Origin: an uncultured virus (IMG/VR IMGVR_UViG_3300033175_000390) | Taxonomy: Duplodnaviria > Heunggongvirae > Uroviricota > Caudoviricetes | DNA length: 20,000 nucleotides | IMG/VR virus record: IMGVR_UViG_3300033175_000390 | Direction: 5' to 3' (one strand) | Part shown: in pieces, positions 3,708-20,000 of the stretch | Layout of the letters: every line of letters starts with the position of its first letter | Position numbering within the stretch: position 1 is the stretch's first letter | Notes under the pieces: generated by a model | What the model was told of the DNA's origin: nothing | Seen by the model: only the letters and a program-made list of their open reading frames with translations | Database searches by the model: none | Program-made: the position numbers and the translations under genes

Positions 3708-4301
3708 ATGGCTACTATCGGGCTTGACAAGCTCTACTACGCGCCGATTACCGAGTCGGCGGCCACGGGCGAGGAATCTTACGGCACCCCCGTCCTGTTG
3801 GCAAAAGCAATCTCAGCGGAGCTGTCGGTTGAACTGGCTGAAGCGACCCTCTACGCCGATGACGGAGCGGCCTATGTCATCAAAGAATTTAAAAACGGAA
3901 AGCTGAAACTTGGTGTTGACGACATTGGGCGCACCCAGGCGGAAACCCTTACCGGAGCGGCCACCGACGAAAACGGGGTGCTTATCTCATCCAGTGAGGA
4001 CGGCGGACCCCCTGTCGCCATCGGCTTTCGGGCCAAGAAAGCCAATGGCGCTTACCGCTACTTTTGGTTTTACAAAGTTAAGTTCGGGGTGCCGTCTACG
4101 AACCTGGCCACCAAAGGTGACTCCATCACTTTCTCTACGCCCACAATTGAAGGTACGGTATCGCGCCGCAACAAACTGGACGGCAACGGCAACCACCCCT
4201 GGAAGGCTGAGGTCAACTCGGACGATGACGGTGTGGCGGCGGCGATCATCACCGGTTGGTACACGGAAGTTTACGAGCCAGCCTTCGCTCTGCAGGGTTA
4301 A
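3708..4301 (+). CDS. Major tail (tube) protein, phi13-family-like
   Basis: MATIGLDKLYYA...LYADDG...VAIGFRAKKANG.YRYFWFYKVKF...TKGDSITFSTPTIEG. Start at ATG 3708 after AGGAGG. Confidence 0.9.
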   Translation: MATIGLDKLYYAPITESAATGEESYGTPVLLAKAISAELSVELAEATLYADDGAAYVIKEFKNGKLKLGVDDIGRTQAETLTGAATDENGVLISSSEDGGPPVAIGFRAKKANGAYRYFWFYKVKFGVPSTNLATKGDSITFSTPTIEGTVSRRNKLDGNGNHPWKAEVNSDDDGVAAAIITGWYTEVYEPAFALQG

Positions 4302-4315
4302 AGGAGGTCTGACCT

Positions 4316-4699
4316 ATGGATAACGAGAGAAGCGCGAAAATCAATATCGGGGGCACGGATTTTGAACTGGTTCTTACTACAAGAGCTACCAAGGAAATAG
4401 CCCGCCGCTATGGCGGTCTGGAAAATCTAGGCGAGAAACTGATGAAGGCTGAAAACTTCGAACTTGCCTTAGATGAGATTATCTGGCTGATTACGCTCTT
4501 AGCCAACCAGTCCATCCTCATCCATAACCTAAGAAACAAGGACGCACCAAAATCTGTTCTTACCGAGGACGAGGTGGAACTTTTGACCTCGCCTTTGGAA
4601 CTGGCCAGCTACAAGGCGGCCATCACCGAAGCGATGTTTAAAGGCACCAAACGCGACATCGAGAGCGAGGGTGACCTAAAAAACACCGGAGCCGAGTAA
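4316..4699 (+). CDS. Tail assembly chaperone, short form (gpG equivalent)
   Basis: 127 aa ORF between major tail and tape measure genes; RBS AAGGAGG; in-frame slippery heptamer A AAA AAC near its 3' end. Confidence 0.85.
   Translation: MDNERSAKINIGGTDFELVLTTRATKEIARRYGGLENLGEKLMKAENFELALDEIIWLITLLANQSILIHNLRNKDAPKSVLTEDEVELLTSPLELASYKAAITEAMFKGTKRDIESEGDLKNTGAE
4678..4684 (+). other. -1 programmed ribosomal frameshift slippery site (A AAA AAC)
   Basis: Codons CTA AAA AAC (4676-4684) give an X XXY YYZ heptamer in the gpG frame. The -1 frame stays open past the gpG stop: HRSRVSDDELFTRLLY up to 4731. Confidence 0.82.
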
Positions 4700-4731
4700 G
4701 CGACGATGAGTTGTTTACCCGGCTTCTTTAT
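4684..4731 (+). CDS. Tail assembly chaperone frameshift extension (gpGT), exon 1 in the -1 frame
   Basis: 16 codons, CAC CGG AGC CGA GTA AGC GAC GAT GAG TTG TTT ACC CGG CTT CTT TAT, ending exactly at the intron 5' GTGCG. Confidence 0.78.
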
Positions 4732-5289
4732 GTGCGCCCAGATAGGGCATTGCCTAATGTGGTGTAGGAGCCACTCCGAACGATAACTCGGGAAATAACC
4801 CACTTAACCGAAAGGCGAAAGCTGGCACGGGAACAAAGCACGGTGGGAAAGCGGTAAGTCACCTTAAAACACATTGGTGCGACTGAACTGCAATATTAAG
4901 CGGATATAAGGTTTAAATTGGGTTTATTGAATGCGAGTTTCCAGTTTCTGTTAGTCGTAGGCGGAGGAAATGTGTTTGTAACCTCTGGAGCAGGAAAGGT
5001 TGTCATTAATAGAGGGACAATCGGTTATCAAATATCCTGTTCAACACGCAAGAGAACTTGTGATAACGAAACGAAAGCAAAACCGACAATCCGCACATAC
5101 CTGTAGGCAGTGTTAACTGGGGATACCCTAAACAGGAACGCCACAACGCGGCTATAGCCACAGGGCTTGAATACCCTGCATGGGTACGGAGCGTTCGTAG
5201 TAGTCCGAGGACGGGAAAGCCGTCCACATGGCGAAGGGACGCAGTTGTTGTGTACTAAAATCAAAATTGATTAGGGAGGAAAACCTCAT

Positions 5290-7080
5290 ATGCAACCAAC
5301 AATAGAGATTTTAGCAAGAATCAGCGTAAACTCTAACGCAAACAAGGATGAAGTTTTTACAAGACTTTACCGCTATTTGTTGCGACCAGATATCTACTTT
5401 GAAGCATATAAAAACCTGTATGCCAATAACGGAGCAGCGACCCGTGGCGTGGATAATGATACCGCAGACGGTTTTAGCGAAGCGAAAATTGATAAAATAA
5501 TAAAATCGCTTAGTGATGAAACCTACACGCCAAAATCAGTGCGAAGAACTTATATCGATAAGGGAAACGGGAAAAAGCGACCGTTGGGCATTCCGACTTT
5601 TACGGACAAACTGGTGCAGGAGGCACTTCGTATGGTACTTGAAGCTGTGTATGAACCGTCTTTCTTGGATTGGTCGCACGGTTTCAGACCGAACCGAAGC
5701 TGTCATACCGCGCTGGCAAGTTTGAAGAAAGAGTTTACAGGGGCGCGTTGGTTTGTCGAGGGCGACATTAAGGGTTGTTTTGATAATATCGACCACGCCG
5801 TTTTAATAAGTATGCTGAACAAGAAAGTGAAGGATGCACGAATAGTCAAACTGATTTACAAATTTTTAAAAGCAGGTTATATGGAAAATTGGCAGTACCA
5901 CAACACCTACAGCGGTACTCCGCAAGGCGGAATTATTTCGCCGTTGCTTGCCAATATCTATCTGCACGAACTGGATAAGTTTGTAATGATGTTAAAGGCA
6001 GAGTTTAACAAGCCGAGAGAAACCCATTCCACGTATGAATACGGGGTTATAAGAAGAAAGATGAAAAAACTCCGTAAGGAAATCGAAAACGCGGACGGTG
6101 ACAAGCGTGGGCAATTGCTTGATGAATATAAAGCAACTCGCGCACAGTTATTACAAACCCCCGCGAAGTCACAAACTGATAAGAAAATCAAGTATATCAG
6201 ATATGCAGACGATTTTTTGATTGCCGTCAACGGAAGTCGTGAGGACTGTGCGGAAATCAAGCGCAGGTTATTCGAATTTATCGGACAGACCTTGAAAATG
6301 GAACTCAGCGACGAAAAAACGTTGATTACCCATAGCAATGATTACGCGCGGTTTTTGGGCTACGATGTACGTGTGAGGAGAAATGGAAAAATTAAGCGCG
6401 GCGGTAAAAATGGTTGTACTAAACGCACGCTTAGCAATAATGTGGAACTCTTAGTGCCCTTTGAAGATAAAATCAATAAATTCCTGTTCTCAAAGGGTGT
6501 TGTTAAACAACGGCTGAACGGTACTGTCTACCCAACGCACAGACCCGCCCTGGAACGATTGACCGACCTTGAAATTGTGATGACCTACAACGCCGAACTC
6601 CGTGGAATATGCAATTATTACAGATTAGCCAGCAACTATAATAGTCTTGGGTATTTTGCATATCTGATGGAATATAGTTGTTTACGAACGCTTGCAGGAA
6701 AACACAAATCAAAGGTTAGCAAAATCAAGGAGAAGTTCAAAGACGGTCATGGCAAATGGGGTATTCCTTATACGACTAAAAAGGGTGAAAAGCGCTGTTA
6801 TTTCGCTAAATTAGCCGATTGCAAAGGGGCAAAATTCTGTACGGATATATTGCCAAACGCTTTTGTAATCCACATGAGCGCAAGAAATACCTTTGAAAAC
6901 AGGTTGAAAGCGAAAGTTTGCGAGCTATGTGGGACAACGGATGCAGAACACTATGAAATTCATCACATTCACAAGGTAAAAGACCTCAAAGGGAAAGAGC
7001 CTTGGAAAGTGGCGATGATAGCCAAACGGCGAAAAACTATGGTGGTTTGCAGAAACTGTCATAACACAATTCATCATTAA
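5290..7080 (+). CDS. ltrA: Group II intron-encoded protein (reverse transcriptase / maturase / HNH endonuclease)
   Basis: 596 aa, collinear with Lactococcus LtrA as recalled: EVFTRLYRYLLRPDIY, RPLGIPTFTDKL, HGFRP, EGDIKGCFDNIDH, GTPQGG, YIRYADDF, FLGY, ELRGICNYY, and C-terminal CELCG..EIHH..CRNCH. Confidence 0.95.
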   Translation: MQPTIEILARISVNSNANKDEVFTRLYRYLLRPDIYFEAYKNLYANNGAATRGVDNDTADGFSEAKIDKIIKSLSDETYTPKSVRRTYIDKGNGKKRPLGIPTFTDKLVQEALRMVLEAVYEPSFLDWSHGFRPNRSCHTALASLKKEFTGARWFVEGDIKGCFDNIDHAVLISMLNKKVKDARIVKLIYKFLKAGYMENWQYHNTYSGTPQGGIISPLLANIYLHELDKFVMMLKAEFNKPRETHSTYEYGVIRRKMKKLRKEIENADGDKRGQLLDEYKATRAQLLQTPAKSQTDKKIKYIRYADDFLIAVNGSREDCAEIKRRLFEFIGQTLKMELSDEKTLITHSNDYARFLGYDVRVRRNGKIKRGGKNGCTKRTLSNNVELLVPFEDKINKFLFSKGVVKQRLNGTVYPTHRPALERLTDLEIVMTYNAELRGICNYYRLASNYNSLGYFAYLMEYSCLRTLAGKHKSKVSKIKEKFKDGHGKWGIPYTTKKGEKRCYFAKLADCKGAKFCTDILPNAFVIHMSARNTFENRLKAKVCELCGTTDAEHYEIHHIHKVKDLKGKEPWKVAMIAKRRKTMVVCRNCHNTIHH

Positions 7081-7107
7081 GAGTTTAACTGACCAAACAA
7101 CAATGGG

Positions 7108-7141
7108 GAGCCGGATACCTTGAGAGGGGTAAGTCCGGTTC
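7108..7141 (+). ncRNA. Group II intron catalytic domain V
   Basis: GAGCCGGATACCTT-GAGA-GGGGT-AA-GTCCGGTTC: a 34-nt hairpin with AGC triad (7109-7111), GNRA loop and 2-nt bulge. Confidence 0.93.
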
Positions 7142-7202
7142 CGGGAGAGGACTGTGCAAACCTACCGTAGAAATGCGGCAAGGCGGCATTTTCCTACTCC
7201 AC

Positions 7203-7358
7203 TACGGTACGGTGCATCTGAACCGTTCCGAAGAGGAAACCTGGCTGACCCCGTTGGGTCTGCTCATGGACTTGTGGGAGTGTCATAAGCAGTTTCTGGG
7301 CTTGGCCAGGCCCAAACAGGAGATGTTCATAGACGGCATCATTCCGGAAGGCGTTTAA
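7203..7358 (+). CDS. Tail assembly chaperone frameshift extension (gpGT), exon 2
   Basis: Starts at the first base after the intron with TAC and reads YGTVHLNRSEEETWLTPLGLLMDLWECHKQFLG...PEGV* (51 aa). Joins exon 1 in frame as ...FTRLLY|YGTVHL... Confidence 0.82.
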   Translation, partial: YGTVHLNRSEEETWLTPLGLLMDLWECHKQFLGLARPKQEMFIDGIIPEGV

Positions 7359-7439: not shown

Positions 7440-9845
7440 ATGGCGGACAATTTCGGCCTTAAAATTGGGGTCGAAGGCGAAAAGGAATTTAAAAATGCTC
7501 TCAGGGACATCAACCAGTCCTTTAAGGTGCTGGGTAGCGAAATGACCCTCGTAACCAGCCAATTTGATAAAAACGATAAATCCATACAATCGGTTACCGC
7601 CCGGAACACGGTTCTAAGTAAAGAAATCGACGCTCAGAAAGAGAAGATTTCCACCCTTAAGGCTGCACTGGACAATGCCTCCTCCTCTTTCGGTGAAAAT
7701 GACCGCCGTACTCAGAACTGGCAGATTCAACTAAATAAGGCTCAGGCAGAAATCAACGGTATGGAGCGTGAACTTGAGCAGTCCACAATCGATGCGGATA
7801 AGCTCGGTGAAGAATTAGACGATTCCGGTAAAAGTGCTGACGAGGCCAGTGGCAAGTTCGAAAAGCTGGGCGGCATCCTCAAAGGCATCGGCGTAACTAT
7901 GGGCGCGGTTGCGGTTGCCGCCGGTGCCGCCGCAATCAAGCTAGGCCAAGAAGTCGTGCAGCAGTTCGGCGAACTGGAGCAGAACCTGGGCGGTTCAGAA
8001 GCCGTGTTCGGCCAGTACGCCGCCTCCATCCAGAAGACCGGCGAAGAAGCCTACAAGAACCTGGGAGTTTCCCAAAGCGAGTACCTCGCCACCGCCAATA
8101 AGATGGGTGCGCTGTTCCAAGGCTCCGGCATTGAACAGCAAAAGTCGCTGGAACTGACTGAAAAAGCCATGCAGCGAGCGGCGGATATGGCCTCCGTCAT
8201 GGGTATTGATATGCAGATGGCTTTGGACTCCGTGGCAGGTGCGGCCAAAGGCAATTTCACCATGATGGATAACCTGGGCGTAGCCATGAATGCCACCAAC
8301 ATCCAAGCCTACGCTTTAGCCAAGGGCCTTGACTTCACCTGGGCATCCGCCACCAATGCGGAAAAAGCCGAAGTCGCCATGCAGATGTTCTTTGATACTA
8401 CCGAGCAGTATGCGGGGAACTTCGCCAAGGAGTCGACCCAGACCATCACTGGTTCAATCGGGCTGCTCCAAGCCGCCCTGGGATCGTTTACCGCCGGGCT
8501 GGGCAACGCCAACGCCGATATGACAAACCTGACCCAGAATCTGGTGGAAGCCTTTCAGGCTGTCGTTACTAACATTGTACCGGTTTTGGAGAACATCGTA
8601 GCTGCGCTGCCCCCGGCGGTTGGTTCCATATTGCAGGCGGTGGGTGATCTGCTGCCCACGCTCCTGAGTACAGTTACGGAACTGTTCTCGCAAGTGCTGG
8701 AAACCGTCCTGAATCTTTTGCCGCAACTAATCCCGGCGGCTGTTGGTGCCGTAATGACGATTGTCGGGGCCTTGATTGATAACCTTCCATTGCTCATCGA
8801 AGCGGCAGTGCAGCTGGTGTCTGCCCTTGTGGAGGGCATCGGTCAGGCTTTGCCGGAGTTAATCCCCGCCGCCGTAAACGCTGTCGCAACGATTGTCCAA
8901 GGCTTGGCAGACAATCTGCCCATGCTGCTGGGCGCGGCTTTGCAGCTTATCCTGGGCCTGGCGCAGGGGCTGGTGGACGCGATACCGCAGTTAATTGCCG
9001 CATTGCCCGCCATAATTAATGCTCTGGTTGATTTCATCATCGGGGCTGTGCCGCAGATTATCCAGGCGGGCATCCAGCTTTTAGCGGCCTTGGTCAAAGG
9101 ACTGCCGGAAATCATCATAGCTGTTGTGGCAGCCATACCCCAGATTGTCGAAGCGCTGGTTACCGCCATCATAGACCCGGAAAGCACCGGGATGATAATT
9201 GAGGCTGGTTTTGTCCTCTTTGTTTCTTTGATTCAGAACCTGCCTGCCATCATAGCTGCCATAGTTAAAGCCGTACCCCCGATCATTACCGCCATAGTGA
9301 ACGACTTTCGCCAGGGCATCGACCGTATTGTGGAGGTAGGCAAGTTTATCGTCGAGGGTATCTGGGAAGGGGTCAGCCAGATGGGTGGCTGGCTGGCGGA
9401 CAAAGTGAGAAACTTTGCTAAATCCATCATTGACTCCATAACCAGCGCTTTAGGGATTAGCTCGCCATCAGTCGTCATGCGGGACTTGGTCGGCAAAAAC
9501 CTGGTATTAGGTTTGGCGGAAGGAATAAGCCAAAACAGCAAAGACGCGGTCATAGCAGCTCATCGTCTGGTCAGCGATACTCTGGCTGCCATGGAGGAAC
9601 TGAGCAAGGGGACGGATTTTACGATTGCAGTGGGTGGTCTTAAGTCTGGATTGGAAGGTATGATGCCGCCAGCAGCAGCTCCTTCTGAACTGGCTTCATC
9701 AAACTTCGGCAGATATTCCCCAGACACACCAGGCAGCGCTGTGATCAACAACACTCTAAACTTTTACACTCCCACCGCCAGCCCAGCGGATATCGCTAAA
9801 GCCAGCCGCCGGGCAGCGGAGCAGATGCTGCGGTATGCCACTTAG
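7440..9845 (+). CDS. Tail tape measure protein (801 aa)
   Basis: Long Ala/Leu/Ile-rich helical protein with periodic LP.L/IP.I repeats and a C-terminal LGISSPS motif. RBS AAAGGAGGTG before ATG 7440. Confidence 0.93.
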   Translation: MADNFGLKIGVEGEKEFKNALRDINQSFKVLGSEMTLVTSQFDKNDKSIQSVTARNTVLSKEIDAQKEKISTLKAALDNASSSFGENDRRTQNWQIQLNKAQAEINGMERELEQSTIDADKLGEELDDSGKSADEASGKFEKLGGILKGIGVTMGAVAVAAGAAAIKLGQEVVQQFGELEQNLGGSEAVFGQYAASIQKTGEEAYKNLGVSQSEYLATANKMGALFQGSGIEQQKSLELTEKAMQRAADMASVMGIDMQMALDSVAGAAKGNFTMMDNLGVAMNATNIQAYALAKGLDFTWASATNAEKAEVAMQMFFDTTEQYAGNFAKESTQTITGSIGLLQAALGSFTAGLGNANADMTNLTQNLVEAFQAVVTNIVPVLENIVAALPPAVGSILQAVGDLLPTLLSTVTELFSQVLETVLNLLPQLIPAAVGAVMTIVGALIDNLPLLIEAAVQLVSALVEGIGQALPELIPAAVNAVATIVQGLADNLPMLLGAALQLILGLAQGLVDAIPQLIAALPAIINALVDFIIGAVPQIIQAGIQLLAALVKGLPEIIIAVVAAIPQIVEALVTAIIDPESTGMIIEAGFVLFVSLIQNLPAIIAAIVKAVPPIITAIVNDFRQGIDRIVEVGKFIVEGIWEGVSQMGGWLADKVRNFAKSIIDSITSALGISSPSVVMRDLVGKNLVLGLAEGISQNSKDAVIAAHRLVSDTLAAMEELSKGTDFTIAVGGLKSGLEGMMPPAAAPSELASSNFGRYSPDTPGSAVINNTLNFYTPTASPADIAKASRRAAEQMLRYAT

Positions 9846-16444: not shown

Positions 16445-18007
16445 CTGAAAAAGGTAACAAAAATCGCGGAAAATACAACTGATTTCACTGAATGTCCCAA
16501 GCTGCGGGTAGCGGCCTACTGCCGTGTTTCTACCGATAGGGATGATCAATTGGTCAGCCTTGCAACCCAGATAAAGCATTATGAATCCTACATCAATGCA
16601 AACCTTGAATGGGAGTTCGCTGGGCTTTATTATGACGAAGGTGTCACAGGTACAAAAAAAGAAAAACGGCCTGAGTTGCTTCGGATGATTGCCGACTGTG
16701 AAAACAAGAAAATAGACTTCATTGTAACAAAGTCTATTAGCAGATTCGCCCGTAACACTACCGACTGCCTTGAACTGGTTAGAAAACTGCTTGACCTCGG
16801 CATTTTTATTTATTTCGAGAAGGAAAATATTAACACAGGGTCAATGGAAAGCGAACTCATGCTGTCAATCCTAAGTGGACTGGCCGAAAGTGAATCGGTT
16901 TCCATCGCTGAAAACAACAAGTGGTCGATACACCGTCGCTTTCAAAGTGGCACGTACAAGATATCCTATCCGCCCTATGGCTACGATAACGTGGATGGGG
17001 AGATGGTCGTCAACGAGTCACAAGCAGAAATTGTTCGCTATATTTTCGCTTCAATTCTATCTGGTAAAAGCACTCACAAAATTGCCGACGAGTTGAACAA
17101 CCGAAAAGTACCAACCAAAAAAGGCGGTCGTTGGACAGCAACAACCATCCGTGGAATGGTCAGCAATGAAAAATACACAGGGGACGCCATTTTTCAGAAA
17201 ACCTATACCGATGTCCATTTCAATCGGCATAACAACAGGGGTGAGAAGGATCGTTATCTGATTAAAAACCATCATGAAGCGATTATCAGTCATGAAGATT
17301 TTGAAGTTGCTCAGGATATTATTGAACAGCGTGGTAAAGAAAAGGGATTGGAAAGGCAGAACCAAAAGTATCAGAACCGTTACCCCTTTTCGGGCAAAAT
17401 CATCTGCGGTCAGTGCGGAGGTACATTTAAGCGCAGAATCCATTCAAGCGGCAGGCATAGAATTGCTTGGTGCTGCTCCATTCATATCGCAGACATCGAA
17501 AAATGCTCTATGAAATATGTACCAGAGTCAGATTTTGAATATGTGTTTGTTACCATGATGAACAAGCTTATTTTCGGACATGAATTTGTCCTCAAGCCGC
17601 TGCTAATCAGCCTGCGAGGGATGAAATCAGATGACAGCTTAATAAACATTCGGGAGCTTGATAAGAGACTCGAAGAAAACGCGGAACAGCGAAATGTACT
17701 GGTTGGGCTGATGACCAAAGGTTATCTTGAGCCTGCCGTTTACAATAAGAGCAACAATGAGCTGCTGCAGGATGCCGAAAGGCTACGCCGTCAAAAGGAA
17801 TCCTTAACCCGATTCTTAAATAACGATTTCCAAAACTTAAGTGAGGTCAGTGCCCTATTGCAATATGCCACCAAGGCATCGATAATGAAGGGCTTTGACG
17901 GAGATATTTTTAAACGCTTTGTGGAGCGGGTTGTTGTGTATTCCCGAGCAGAGATTGGGTTTGAGCTAAAATGCGGCATTACGCTGAAAGAAAGGTTGGT
18001 GAGATAA
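16445..18007 (+). CDS. Large serine recombinase 1 (resolvase + recombinase + Zn-ribbon domains), probable CTG start, 520 aa
   Basis: The frame is open upstream of the listed 16550 start and encodes KKVTKI...[12 protein letters not shown] (catalytic Ser). RBS AAGGAGGTGA at 16431-16440 precedes CTG 16445; an in-frame TAA lies at 16427. Downstream motifs [20 protein letters not shown] and CGQCG. Confidence 0.88.
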   Translation: MKKVTKIAENTTDFTECPKLRVAAYCRVSTDRDDQLVSLATQIKHYESYINANLEWEFAGLYYDEGVTGTKKEKRPELLRMIADCENKKIDFIVTKSISRFARNTTDCLELVRKLLDLGIFIYFEKENINTGSMESELMLSILSGLAESESVSIAENNKWSIHRRFQSGTYKISYPPYGYDNVDGEMVVNESQAEIVRYIFASILSGKSTHKIADELNNRKVPTKKGGRWTATTIRGMVSNEKYTGDAIFQKTYTDVHFNRHNNRGEKDRYLIKNHHEAIISHEDFEVAQDIIEQRGKEKGLERQNQKYQNRYPFSGKIICGQCGGTFKRRIHSSGRHRIAWCCSIHIADIEKCSMKYVPESDFEYVFVTMMNKLIFGHEFVLKPLLISLRGMKSDDSLINIRELDKRLEENAEQRNVLVGLMTKGYLEPAVYNKSNNELLQDAERLRRQKESLTRFLNNDFQNLSEVSALLQYATKASIMKGFDGDIFKRFVERVVVYSRAEIGFELKCGITLKERLVR

Positions 18008-18439
18008 ATGAGCCACACACCATTTGGCTACCGTATTAAAAACGGAAAGGCTGTTATTGATATCGAAGCAGCCGAGCAGATAAAAATCTTGTTTGAGTCC
18101 TATTTGTCCGGAGATTCGTTAGCAACAGCTGCAAAGAAGGCAGGCATCAAAGCCTTTCACGCCGGTATCGGCAGAATGCTTCGCAATACGCGTTATCTTG
18201 GCGACGACTATTATCCCGCCATAATCGACCCGGACACGTTTACAGCCGCCGAAGCGGAGCGTATCAGGCGGGCTGAGAAACTCGGTCGTATCTATGAACC
18301 ACAAGAAGAAACAACGGTCGTCTATCCTACTGCCTTTCACGTAATAGAAGGAAGAGAAGAATTTGACGACCCCTTCGCACAGGCGGAATACGCCTACAGT
18401 TTAATCGAAACGGAGGTGAACAAGAATGGCAGTAAGTAA
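18008..18439 (+). CDS. Small recombinase-domain protein lacking the catalytic domain
   Basis: 143 aa; [16 protein letters not shown] and YPAIID..TF resemble the recombinase DNA-binding domain; no YxRVS motif. Confidence 0.75.
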
Positions 18440-20000
18440 AAGCGTCACCGTGATTCCGGCAAGGAAGCATGTTCGAAAGAGTGAGGACGAAGAAAAGCCT
18501 AAACTCCGTGTTGCTGCCTATTGCCGTGTTTCCACGGACAGTGACGAGCAGGCTACCAGTTATGAAACACAGATTGAACACTACACTGCCTATATACAAG
18601 GGCATCCTGACTGGGTGCTGGCGGGAATATTTGCAGACGACGGCATTTCCGGTACCAACACCAAAAAGCGTGAGGAATTCAACCGCATGATTGACGAGTG
18701 TATGGCTGGTAATATCGATATGATTATTACAAAGTCCATCAGCCGATTTGCCCGAAACACACTGGACTGTTTGAAATATATCCGTCAGCTCAAGGAGAAA
18801 AACATTCCCGTTTATTTTGAAAAGGAAAATATTAACACTATGGATTCTAAGGGCGAAGTTCTGCTCACGATTATGGCATCCCTTGCCCAACAGGAAAGCC
18901 AGTCACTAAGCCAAAACGTAAAACTGGGGTTACAATATCGCTACCAACAGGGTGAAATTCAAGTCAACTGCGCTCGGTTTCTCGGCTATACCAAGGATGA
19001 AAACAAGCGTCTGGTGGTTGTTCCCGAAGAAGCTGAAATCATCAAACGCATCTACCGGGAATACCTTGAGGGTGCCAGTATGTTGAAAATAGCTCGTGGT
19101 TTGGAAGCGGACGGTATCCTAAACGGTGCCGGCAGGGAACGCTGGCATACAAGCAACATAAATCAGATCCTGCGAAACGAAAAGTACATCGGCGACGCTC
19201 TTTTACAGAAAACATATACCGTAGATTTTCTCACAAAAAAGCGAGTCAAGAATAACGGTATCGTTCCGCAATATTATGTAGAAAACAGCCATGAAGCCAT
19301 TATTCCGCGTGAAATCTTCATGCAGGTGCAGGAGGAGCTTGTCCGCCGTCGTATTGTGCACACCAGCCCAAACGGAAAGAGCCGAACCTTTAGCAGCAAC
19401 CACTGCTTCGCTCAGATTGTTATCTGCGGCAACTGCGGCGAGGTTTTCCGCAGGGTTCACTGGAACAACCGAGGCAAGAAATCCATCGTCTGGCGCTGCG
19501 TAAGCAGACTGGAGAACACTGGCCTTTTCTGCGATGCCCGCACGGTGCTTGAAAGCACCATCGAGCAGGTACTGGTCACCGCCATCAATAATACCCTGAG
19601 GGGAAGGGACGCTTTCCTATTCATACTAAAGGAGAACATCGCAACTGTTCTAACCCGTGAAAATGACCGGACCTTAGCCGATATTGATAAGCGGCTGGAA
19701 GAACTTCAAACGGAACTATTGAAGCTGGCCACTTCCAATGCGGATTATGATAAAGTCGGTGATGAGATCCACCGCCTGCGTGACCAGAAGCAAAAATTGC
19801 AGGTTGAAAACGTCAACCGTGATGAACTTAAAAAGCGCATTGCTGATATGAGCACATTCCTAAAAAAGCAATCCACCGCCCTCGCCGAATATGACGAGCA
19901 GCTTGTCCGGCGGCTGATTGAAAAAGTCACCGTCTACGAAGACAAATTTACCGTGGAATTCAAGTCTGGCTTGACGGTGGATGTGGATGAATACGGGTAA
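18426..20000 (+). CDS. Large serine recombinase 2 (524 aa)
   Basis: [50 protein letters not shown]...WRC Zn ribbon and coiled coil; RBS GGAGGTGA; ends at TAA 19998-20000. Confidence 0.93.

Follow-up and report, generated by a model that had tools for sequence, protein, structure and literature searches.

We analysed a stretch of 20,000 nucleotides (nt) from an uncultured tailed phage (IMG/VR record IMGVR_UViG_3300033175_000390; hereafter the window, meaning the whole stretch), which bears the late operon of a temperate siphophage. Its upstream genes encode the C-terminus of the portal protein, a ClpP-type protease, the major capsid protein, connectors, the tail terminator, the major tail protein and a protein of 127 amino acids (aa). 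This last open reading frame (ORF) is followed by an insert of 2.5 kb, a short ORF and the genes for the tape measure protein, Dit, Tal, fibres, holin, amidase and serine recombinases. The 127-aa ORF, here called G, is thus flanked by the genes of the major tail protein (phrog_88) and the tape measure (phrog_58). The chaperones gpG and gpGT of phage lambda are reportedly produced by a −1 frameshift that is conserved across siphophages. The locus in the window resembles that system in that the region between the genes of the major tail protein and the tape measure contains two overlapping frames, a slippery heptamer is found near the end of G, and both products would share one N-terminus. It differs from it in that T, the frameshift extension, is interrupted by an intron, that the heptamer is followed by a strong hairpin with covarying pairs, and that no Pfam chaperone family was matched. 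An earlier reading of the letters alone (the original prediction) had claimed that GT requires both a −1 ribosomal frameshift and the splicing of a group II intron. The positions that it gave for the G ORF, the heptamer, the intron ends and the TAG codon in the intron, and the sum of 190 aa, all proved exact. On the evidence given below, we hold it to be probable that GT of this temperate siphophage depends on both events, the intron being a selfish element that is tolerated by the phage. The features of the locus are collected in Table 1.

Table 1. Features of the G/T locus and its neighbours (window positions)
Feature	Position	Strand	Basis
Major tail protein gene (upstream neighbour)	3708..4301	+	phrog_88, E 6.9e-51; annotated coding sequence (CDS) in PV036457.1
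Tail assembly chaperone G ORF, 0 frame, 127 aa	4316..4699	+	phrog_2115 'tail protein', E 4.7e-26
Slippery heptamer A_AAA_AAC for −1 frameshift	4678..4684	+	Identical and in phase in 78/78 intron-less relatives
Exon-1 part of T extension, −1 frame, 16 codons, HRSRVSDDELFTRLLY	4684..4731	+	Homologous and contiguous with T segment in relatives
Putative frameshift-stimulating hairpin, core 4691-4697 with 4717-4723	4688..4726	+	Wholly in exon 1; minimum free energy and covariation
Intron-binding site 2 (IBS2) CGGCU (−12 to −8)	4720..4724	+	5/5 pairs (one G.U) with exon-binding site 2 (EBS2) 4953-4957; family covariation
Intron-binding site 1 (IBS1) CUUUAU (−6 to −1)	4726..4731	+	6/6 pairs (one G.U) with exon-binding site 1 (EBS1) 5009-5014
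Group II intron, Ll.LtrB-like (IIA), 2,471 nt	4732..7202	+	5' GUGCG, 3' AC; boundaries align with related introns
EBS2 AGUCG, domain I stem-loop	4953..4957	+	Covariation with own 5' exon
Delta UA (5007-5008) and EBS1 AUAGAG (5009-5014), domain I stem-loop	5007..5014	+	Delta pairs with +1, +2
Intron-encoded protein, 596 aa: reverse transcriptase, maturase X, HNH endonuclease	5290..7080	+	Pfam and LtrA alignment
Domain V	7107..7142	+	Rfam alignment; fold
Domain VI, bulged branch-point A at 7196	7144..7200	+	Rfam alignment; fold
Exon 2: T segment, 51 aa and stop, YGTVHLNRSEEETW...PEGV	7203..7358	+	116 homologous short ORFs; phrog_10988, E 8.1e-22
Tape measure protein gene (downstream neighbour)	7440..9845	+	phrog_58, E 5.5e-72; CDS in PV036457.1

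Frameshift signals and the exon junction

At the slippery site, the 0 frame reads CTA AAA AAC with the heptamer in the phase X_XXY_YYZ, and G continues to its stop codon at 4697–4699. The −1 frame is closed until just 5' of the heptamer (a TGA stop, then PKK). Because the intron measures 2,471 nt, position 7203 falls into the −1 frame of G once the intron has been removed, and the predicted spliced and shifted GT amounts to 123 + 16 + 51 = 190 aa. In unspliced RNA, the −1 frame meets a TAG codon at 4765–4767.

This junction could be compared with relatives that lack the intron. A search with the 51-aa peptide of exon 2 yielded 116 short ORFs, 92 of which read ...R-L-L/I-Y-Y-G-T-V... across the predicted junction, which lies between the two tyrosines (e.g., MSDDELFTRLLYYGTVHLNRSEEETW). 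One ORF (P0004) starts inside the 3' end of an intron, and the other 23 mostly start at or after the junction or bear small variants. Among 575 viral loci that encode a relative of G, we compared the best 80 at the DNA level. At 78 of these, the T segment follows the G match at a distance of 36–87 nt; it is in the −1 frame, and no reverse transcriptase gene is present. Such a recurrence exceeds what chance would produce. The remaining two are a locus identical to the window with the intron present (L001) and a contig that ends too early (L047). The original prediction that intron-less relatives encode a contiguous ELFTRLLYYGTVHL in the −1 frame was thus borne out by both comparisons. In 73 of the intron-less relatives, 47 nt separate the heptamer from the position that corresponds to the intron site; the other five have 65 nt.

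Downstream of the heptamer, the exon folds into a hairpin with a minimum free energy of −24.1 kcal/mol (z −6.2). In an alignment of 49 distinct relatives, 90.8% of the cells were consistent with its pairing, compared with 29–53% when the partner was slid by one to three columns and 86.2% in a shuffle control. Compensatory changes were observed in two pairs, 15–45 (CG 26, UG 11, UA 9, GC 3) and 18–42 (GC 33, AU 8, CG 3). Since these pairs join bases at the third positions of codons for Arg, Thr and Ser/Gly, the covariation is synonymous. The 3' arm of the hairpin covers IBS2 together with the first base of IBS1.

The group II intron and its spread

The intron begins with GTGCG at 4732 and ends with AC at 7201–7202, and these ends align with those of related introns at 79 viral loci and at genome loci. 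An alignment of domain I across 47 related introns revealed two stem-loops whose loops covary with the 5' exon of the respective intron. For 23 intron types, EBS1 formed 6/6 pairs with its own site in ten cases, as against 8.5% of 504 mismatched combinations; EBS2 was fully paired with its own site in 14 of the 23, as against 17% of mismatched combinations. The delta–delta' pairing, UA 5007–5008 with UA 7203–7204, is complete as well (2/2). The encoded protein matched the Pfam families RVT_1 (1.5e-35), Intron_maturas2 (1.6e-16) and AI2M-like_HNH (2.2e-23), and it is collinear with LtrA over residues 1–596 (E 1.2e-250, 836 bits) with the YADD and HNH motifs aligned. The Rfam model RF00029 for domains V and VI (D5/D6) matched 7106–7202 with 54.6 bits (gathering score 40), ending exactly at 7202.

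With its 2,471 nt, the intron is similar in size to Ll.LtrB, which measures about 2.5 kb, and its layout (IBS2 at −12 to −8, IBS1 at −6 to −1, delta beside EBS1 and pairing with +1) is presumably that of the IIA introns such as Ll.LtrB. Ll.LtrB resides in the conjugative relaxase gene ltrB of Lactococcus lactis, whereas the host gene in the window is the frameshift extension of a phage tail chaperone. Moreover, the 3' exon has G at +5, where LtrA prefers T. In itself, the intron is an ordinary element of the Ll.LtrB type.

Near-identical copies of the intron (99.96–100% identity over 2,434–2,471 nt) were found at the homologous site in a viral contig (L085), a Bacillota metagenome-assembled genome (MAG; L164) and a Syntrophomonadaceae MAG (L165). 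Their 416-nt 5' exons are just 64–72% identical to that of the window, and the 3' exons share 72% (L164) and 66% (L165) identity with it, that of L085 being missing at the contig end. In a further background (L244), the same intron is followed by another diverged 3' exon. Because the intron is far more conserved than its flanking exons, retrohoming appears to have been recent. It would have required splicing, a lariat ribonucleoprotein and an active protein, which indicates that ribozyme and protein are in working order. Among the empty cognate sites, 49 are distinct; ten of them pair with EBS1, EBS2 and delta at 13/13 positions, and 31 have one mismatch in IBS1.

The intron-bearing region was also detected at 100% identity, in one copy each, in two records (G001 and G002). 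An assembly artefact or a chimera was ruled out, as the same arrangement recurs in independent assemblies. At the level of sequencing runs, a share of 0.90 or more of the sampled words was reached in five DNA runs. A share of 0.80 or more, which is roughly that of the intron in the query, was reached in about 14, and these came from sludge, wastewater, landfill and digester material. A metagenome scan with the first 33 nt of the intron gave no matches, a scan with its last 31 nt retrieved one contig (L244), and a viral scan revealed nothing beyond two contigs already known. One record holding the Bacillota-type siphophage region at 100% identity is titled a Candidatus Micrarchaeota archaeon MAG (JAHKLX010000061.1); the archaeal label probably reflects faulty binning of that MAG.

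RNA evidence was drawn from the assembled contigs of metatranscriptome runs, four of which hold segments of intron RNA. A contig of 151 nt (X17) links exon 1 to exon 2 of an L069-like relative; it may stem from a spliced transcript or from an intron-less phage and was counted neither way. In two metatranscriptomes, other, longer RNA contigs of higher depth matched solely a 40-nt stretch 5' of the start of the intron protein (5198–5238), which looks like a short segment common to other elements.

The intron of the window belongs to an LtrB-like family whose proteins are 56–71% identical to its own. We compiled 79 loci of this family from viral contigs (L084–L162) and 79 from the contigs of a one-genome-per-species set (L163–L241). 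At 71 of the 79 viral loci, a family intron is inserted in sense and precisely between codons in a homolog of one of the late genes of the window phage; the host gene was not identified at the other eight. The family spans at least 11 sites. In the portal gene it occupies positions 173/174 (22 viral loci) and 245/246 (11), and in the protease gene, with at least three sites, positions 62/63 (8), 67/68 (1) and 145/146 (2). Further insertions lie in the connector (27/28, one locus), in the major tail protein (about 8/9, 16 loci), in G (56/57, three loci), in T (two loci at the site of the window, two at a second site 15 nt upstream) and in the tape measure gene (16/17, three loci). Two contigs (L122 and L129) carry two family introns each, one at portal 173/174 and another beyond it, within or close to the protease gene. 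Among the genome contigs, 16 of the 79 loci are in late genes and the others elsewhere, including an ...IHN/HI... site (L180, L232) that we take to be the ltrB relaxase site.

In a FastTree phylogeny of 71 distinct intron proteins, the protein of the window grouped with those of the major-tail-protein introns, while that of L108 grouped with those of the tape-measure introns. The T extension thus seems, from this tree, to have been colonised twice by introns. The intron of L108 and L109, whose protein shares 69% identity with that of the window, is the one at the second T site. In L108 (150–195, 2670–2700), exon 1 contains the 5' arm of the hairpin (GTCGGGT) and exon 2 its 3' arm (ACCCGAC). 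As this intron sits inside the hairpin loop and separates the arms, the stimulator of L108/L109 would form only in spliced RNA. In L101, L102 and L103, a family intron splits the G ORF between residues 56 and 57 (...LDEIV/WLITLLANQS); in these phages, splicing would be required for both G and GT. Apart from the introns, the window holds three tandem serine-recombinase ORFs (16550–20000) of 485 aa, 143 aa and at least 524 aa, the last running past the window end; the 143-aa ORF is a fragment with a weak Recombinase match.

Possible readings of the arrangement

We propose that G would be made by ordinary termination at 4697–4699, while GT would arise by a −1 ribosomal slip on A_AAA_AAC (4678–4684) that is stimulated by the hairpin a few bases downstream. 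An intron of the Ll.LtrB type would have retrohomed into the part that is used by T only, 47 nt past the heptamer and exactly between codons. Since the stop codon of G precedes the 5' splice site by 32 nt, G needs no splicing, and the original prediction was right to regard gpG as unaffected. Full-length GT of 190 aa would come only from RNA freed of the intron with the aid of the LtrA-like maturase, and a ribosome that shifts on unspliced RNA would encounter a stop 11 codons into the intron. The arrangement is best read, in the simplest way, as a low-cost selfish intron that has been spreading recently and is tolerated since it is spliced. Tail production may depend on splicing and frameshifting, and splicing might 'tune' the G:GT ratio, as had been suggested.

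Several observations weigh against this reading. Neither G nor T matched any Pfam family; G was assigned as a chaperone from its place in the operon, its frameshift signals and weak structural matches. Foldseek searches of the PDB with a model of G gave no match at E ≤ 0.001, and the top hit of a wide VIA-align search (Z 5.7) was an unrelated helical protein. Among nine BFVD matches (E ≤ 0.001), three are labelled tail assembly chaperone, with E from 1.8e-4 to 8.9e-4. The Rfam group II models for domains I–IV (D1–D4) did not match the intron even at E up to 1, and in the window the conserved core of the hairpin is interrupted by one A.C mismatch. Being stable and enclosing IBS2 together with the first base of IBS1, the hairpin could hinder splicing. 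No unambiguous spliced junction was found among the contigs of the RNA runs, and one RNA contig (X16) with a variant exon covers an unspliced junction. The intron is carried by just one of the 80 nearest G relatives. Finally, the C-terminus of T in L165 (4413–4570) ends in ...KQFIVGLPSLKKSPSLMR, as compared with ...KQFIGIAKPKKIAFIDEVIPEWL in the similar L244; this suggests a one-base indel, from decay or from a long-read error.

Some of these points would also fit a prophage that has lost intron splicing and is tail-defective, its GT being truncated after ...LLYVRPDRALPNVV. The spliced product was not observed in the RNA contigs, the hairpin possibly sequesters IBS2, and similar prophage insertions have been taken as gene disruption (PMC11318856). 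Yet the 596-aa protein is intact with its YADD and HNH motifs, D5/D6 and the EBS/IBS pairings are intact, and T is intact downstream of the intron in the window, L164 and L244. The near-identical intron also occurs in four or more diverged backgrounds, and to get there it must recently have formed lariats and undergone reverse splicing. We therefore consider a loss of splicing highly improbable. We likewise give little credence to the notion that the T frame is entered by transcriptional slippage, in which an extra A in the mRNA would replace the ribosomal shift and splicing would still be needed. The conserved site is indeed a run of six A, and an added A would give the same downstream frame, with K replacing N at residue 123. 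However, the strict X_XXY_YYZ phase in 78/78 relatives and the covarying hairpin at the usual spacing are features of −1 ribosomal frameshifting, and six A are short for efficient polymerase slippage. The possibility that neither recoding event matters, because T is made alone from an ATG at 7173 inside the intron and is sufficient in this form, is barely credible. Although the corresponding ORF of 61 aa (7173–7358) exists and is reported by gene callers (P0004; a CDS in PV036457.1), its ATG lies within domain VI and is not preceded by a Shine–Dalgarno sequence. Furthermore, intron-less relatives are devoid of such a start, and in them the T frame is closed up to the heptamer and continues from G.

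A regulatory coupling of splicing and frameshifting is put forward here as a hypothesis. It could apply to the gene family, in which the hairpin and EBS2 would contest the same exon bases, the rarely translated T extension would be a preferred and repeatedly colonised refuge and the output of GT would report splicing; we regard this as unlikely. Less probable still, in our view, is that the arrangement is adaptive, with the hairpin competing with EBS2 for IBS2, shifted ribosomes unwinding the hairpin, the efficiency of splicing determining either the G:GT ratio or when tails are assembled, and the rarely translated T extension offering a refuge in which the scarcity of ribosomes favours the folding of the intron. 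The overlap of the hairpin with IBS2 and IBS1 speaks for an adaptive coupling, as do the second, distantly related intron of L108/L109 (69% protein identity), which splits the hairpin 15 nt upstream, and the placement of the two T-site introns in different subclades of the protein tree. Against it, genes with heavy translation (those of the major tail protein, portal and protease) also host members of the family, and low ribosome traffic is therefore not required. In addition, 78 of the 80 relatives manage without the intron, and ten perfect targets among the 49 distinct empty sites are still unoccupied.

Known systems and implications

Phages were believed to lack group II introns before a survey of 2025, in which Merk, Jones and Eddy reported 20 such introns in a curated set and 9,229 IMG/VR contigs (PMC12350094). 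As in the window, these are intact introns within conserved phage genes that were validated by intron-less homologs and EBS/IBS pairing, and some of the reverse transcriptase proteins are mis-annotated in GenBank. In the main text of the survey, tail, portal, chaperone, frameshift and tape measure are not mentioned and the IMG/VR hits are only counted; its supplements may list the contigs studied here. Introns in capsid and tail genes are described for Cluster J mycobacteriophages (PMC3706429). They are comparable in that self-splicing introns occupy late structural genes of siphophages with a chaperone frameshift; they differ in that they are most likely group I introns with homing endonucleases and lie outside the chaperone genes. 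In Clostridium clostridioforme LM41 (PMC11318856), introns of the LtrA type are likewise located inside genes of gut-Clostridia prophages; these, however, affect a helicase gene and the lysis module, are read as inactivating and involve no frameshift. The main text of the Heliusvirales paper mentions neither an intron nor a reverse transcriptase, frameshift or chaperone.

Full-text literature searches returned no report of a group II intron in a G/GT chaperone frameshift gene. What is new is the location of the intron, its overlap with the frameshift signals and the colonisation of late genes across the family. The expectation that standard annotation misses the intron was confirmed by PV036457.1, which contains it at 100% identity: the region is labelled as a 'tail protein', four small minus-strand hypothetical ORFs, a 'reverse transcriptase' and a hypothetical protein. 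The four minus-strand ORFs cover intron domains I–III (window 4728–5289; L083 5997–6558) and are most likely spurious calls on ribozyme sequence. Surveys based on the Rfam D1–D4 models would detect merely D5/D6 of this intron, as there is no match over 4732–5289.

In this phage, a single protein would need two different recoding events, both of which are missed by standard annotation. The heptamer, the hairpin, IBS2/IBS1 and the intron site are all contained in an exon stretch of about 55 nt, and the locus would offer a compact natural system in which to study the interplay of ribosome traffic, mRNA structure and group II splicing in bacteria, with L108, whose hairpin is divided by an intron, as a natural variant. 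The phage lineage that hosts the family introns is widespread, and the presence of an LtrB-like family at no fewer than 11 sites in head and tail genes bears on intron transfer between phages and on gene calling in viromes.

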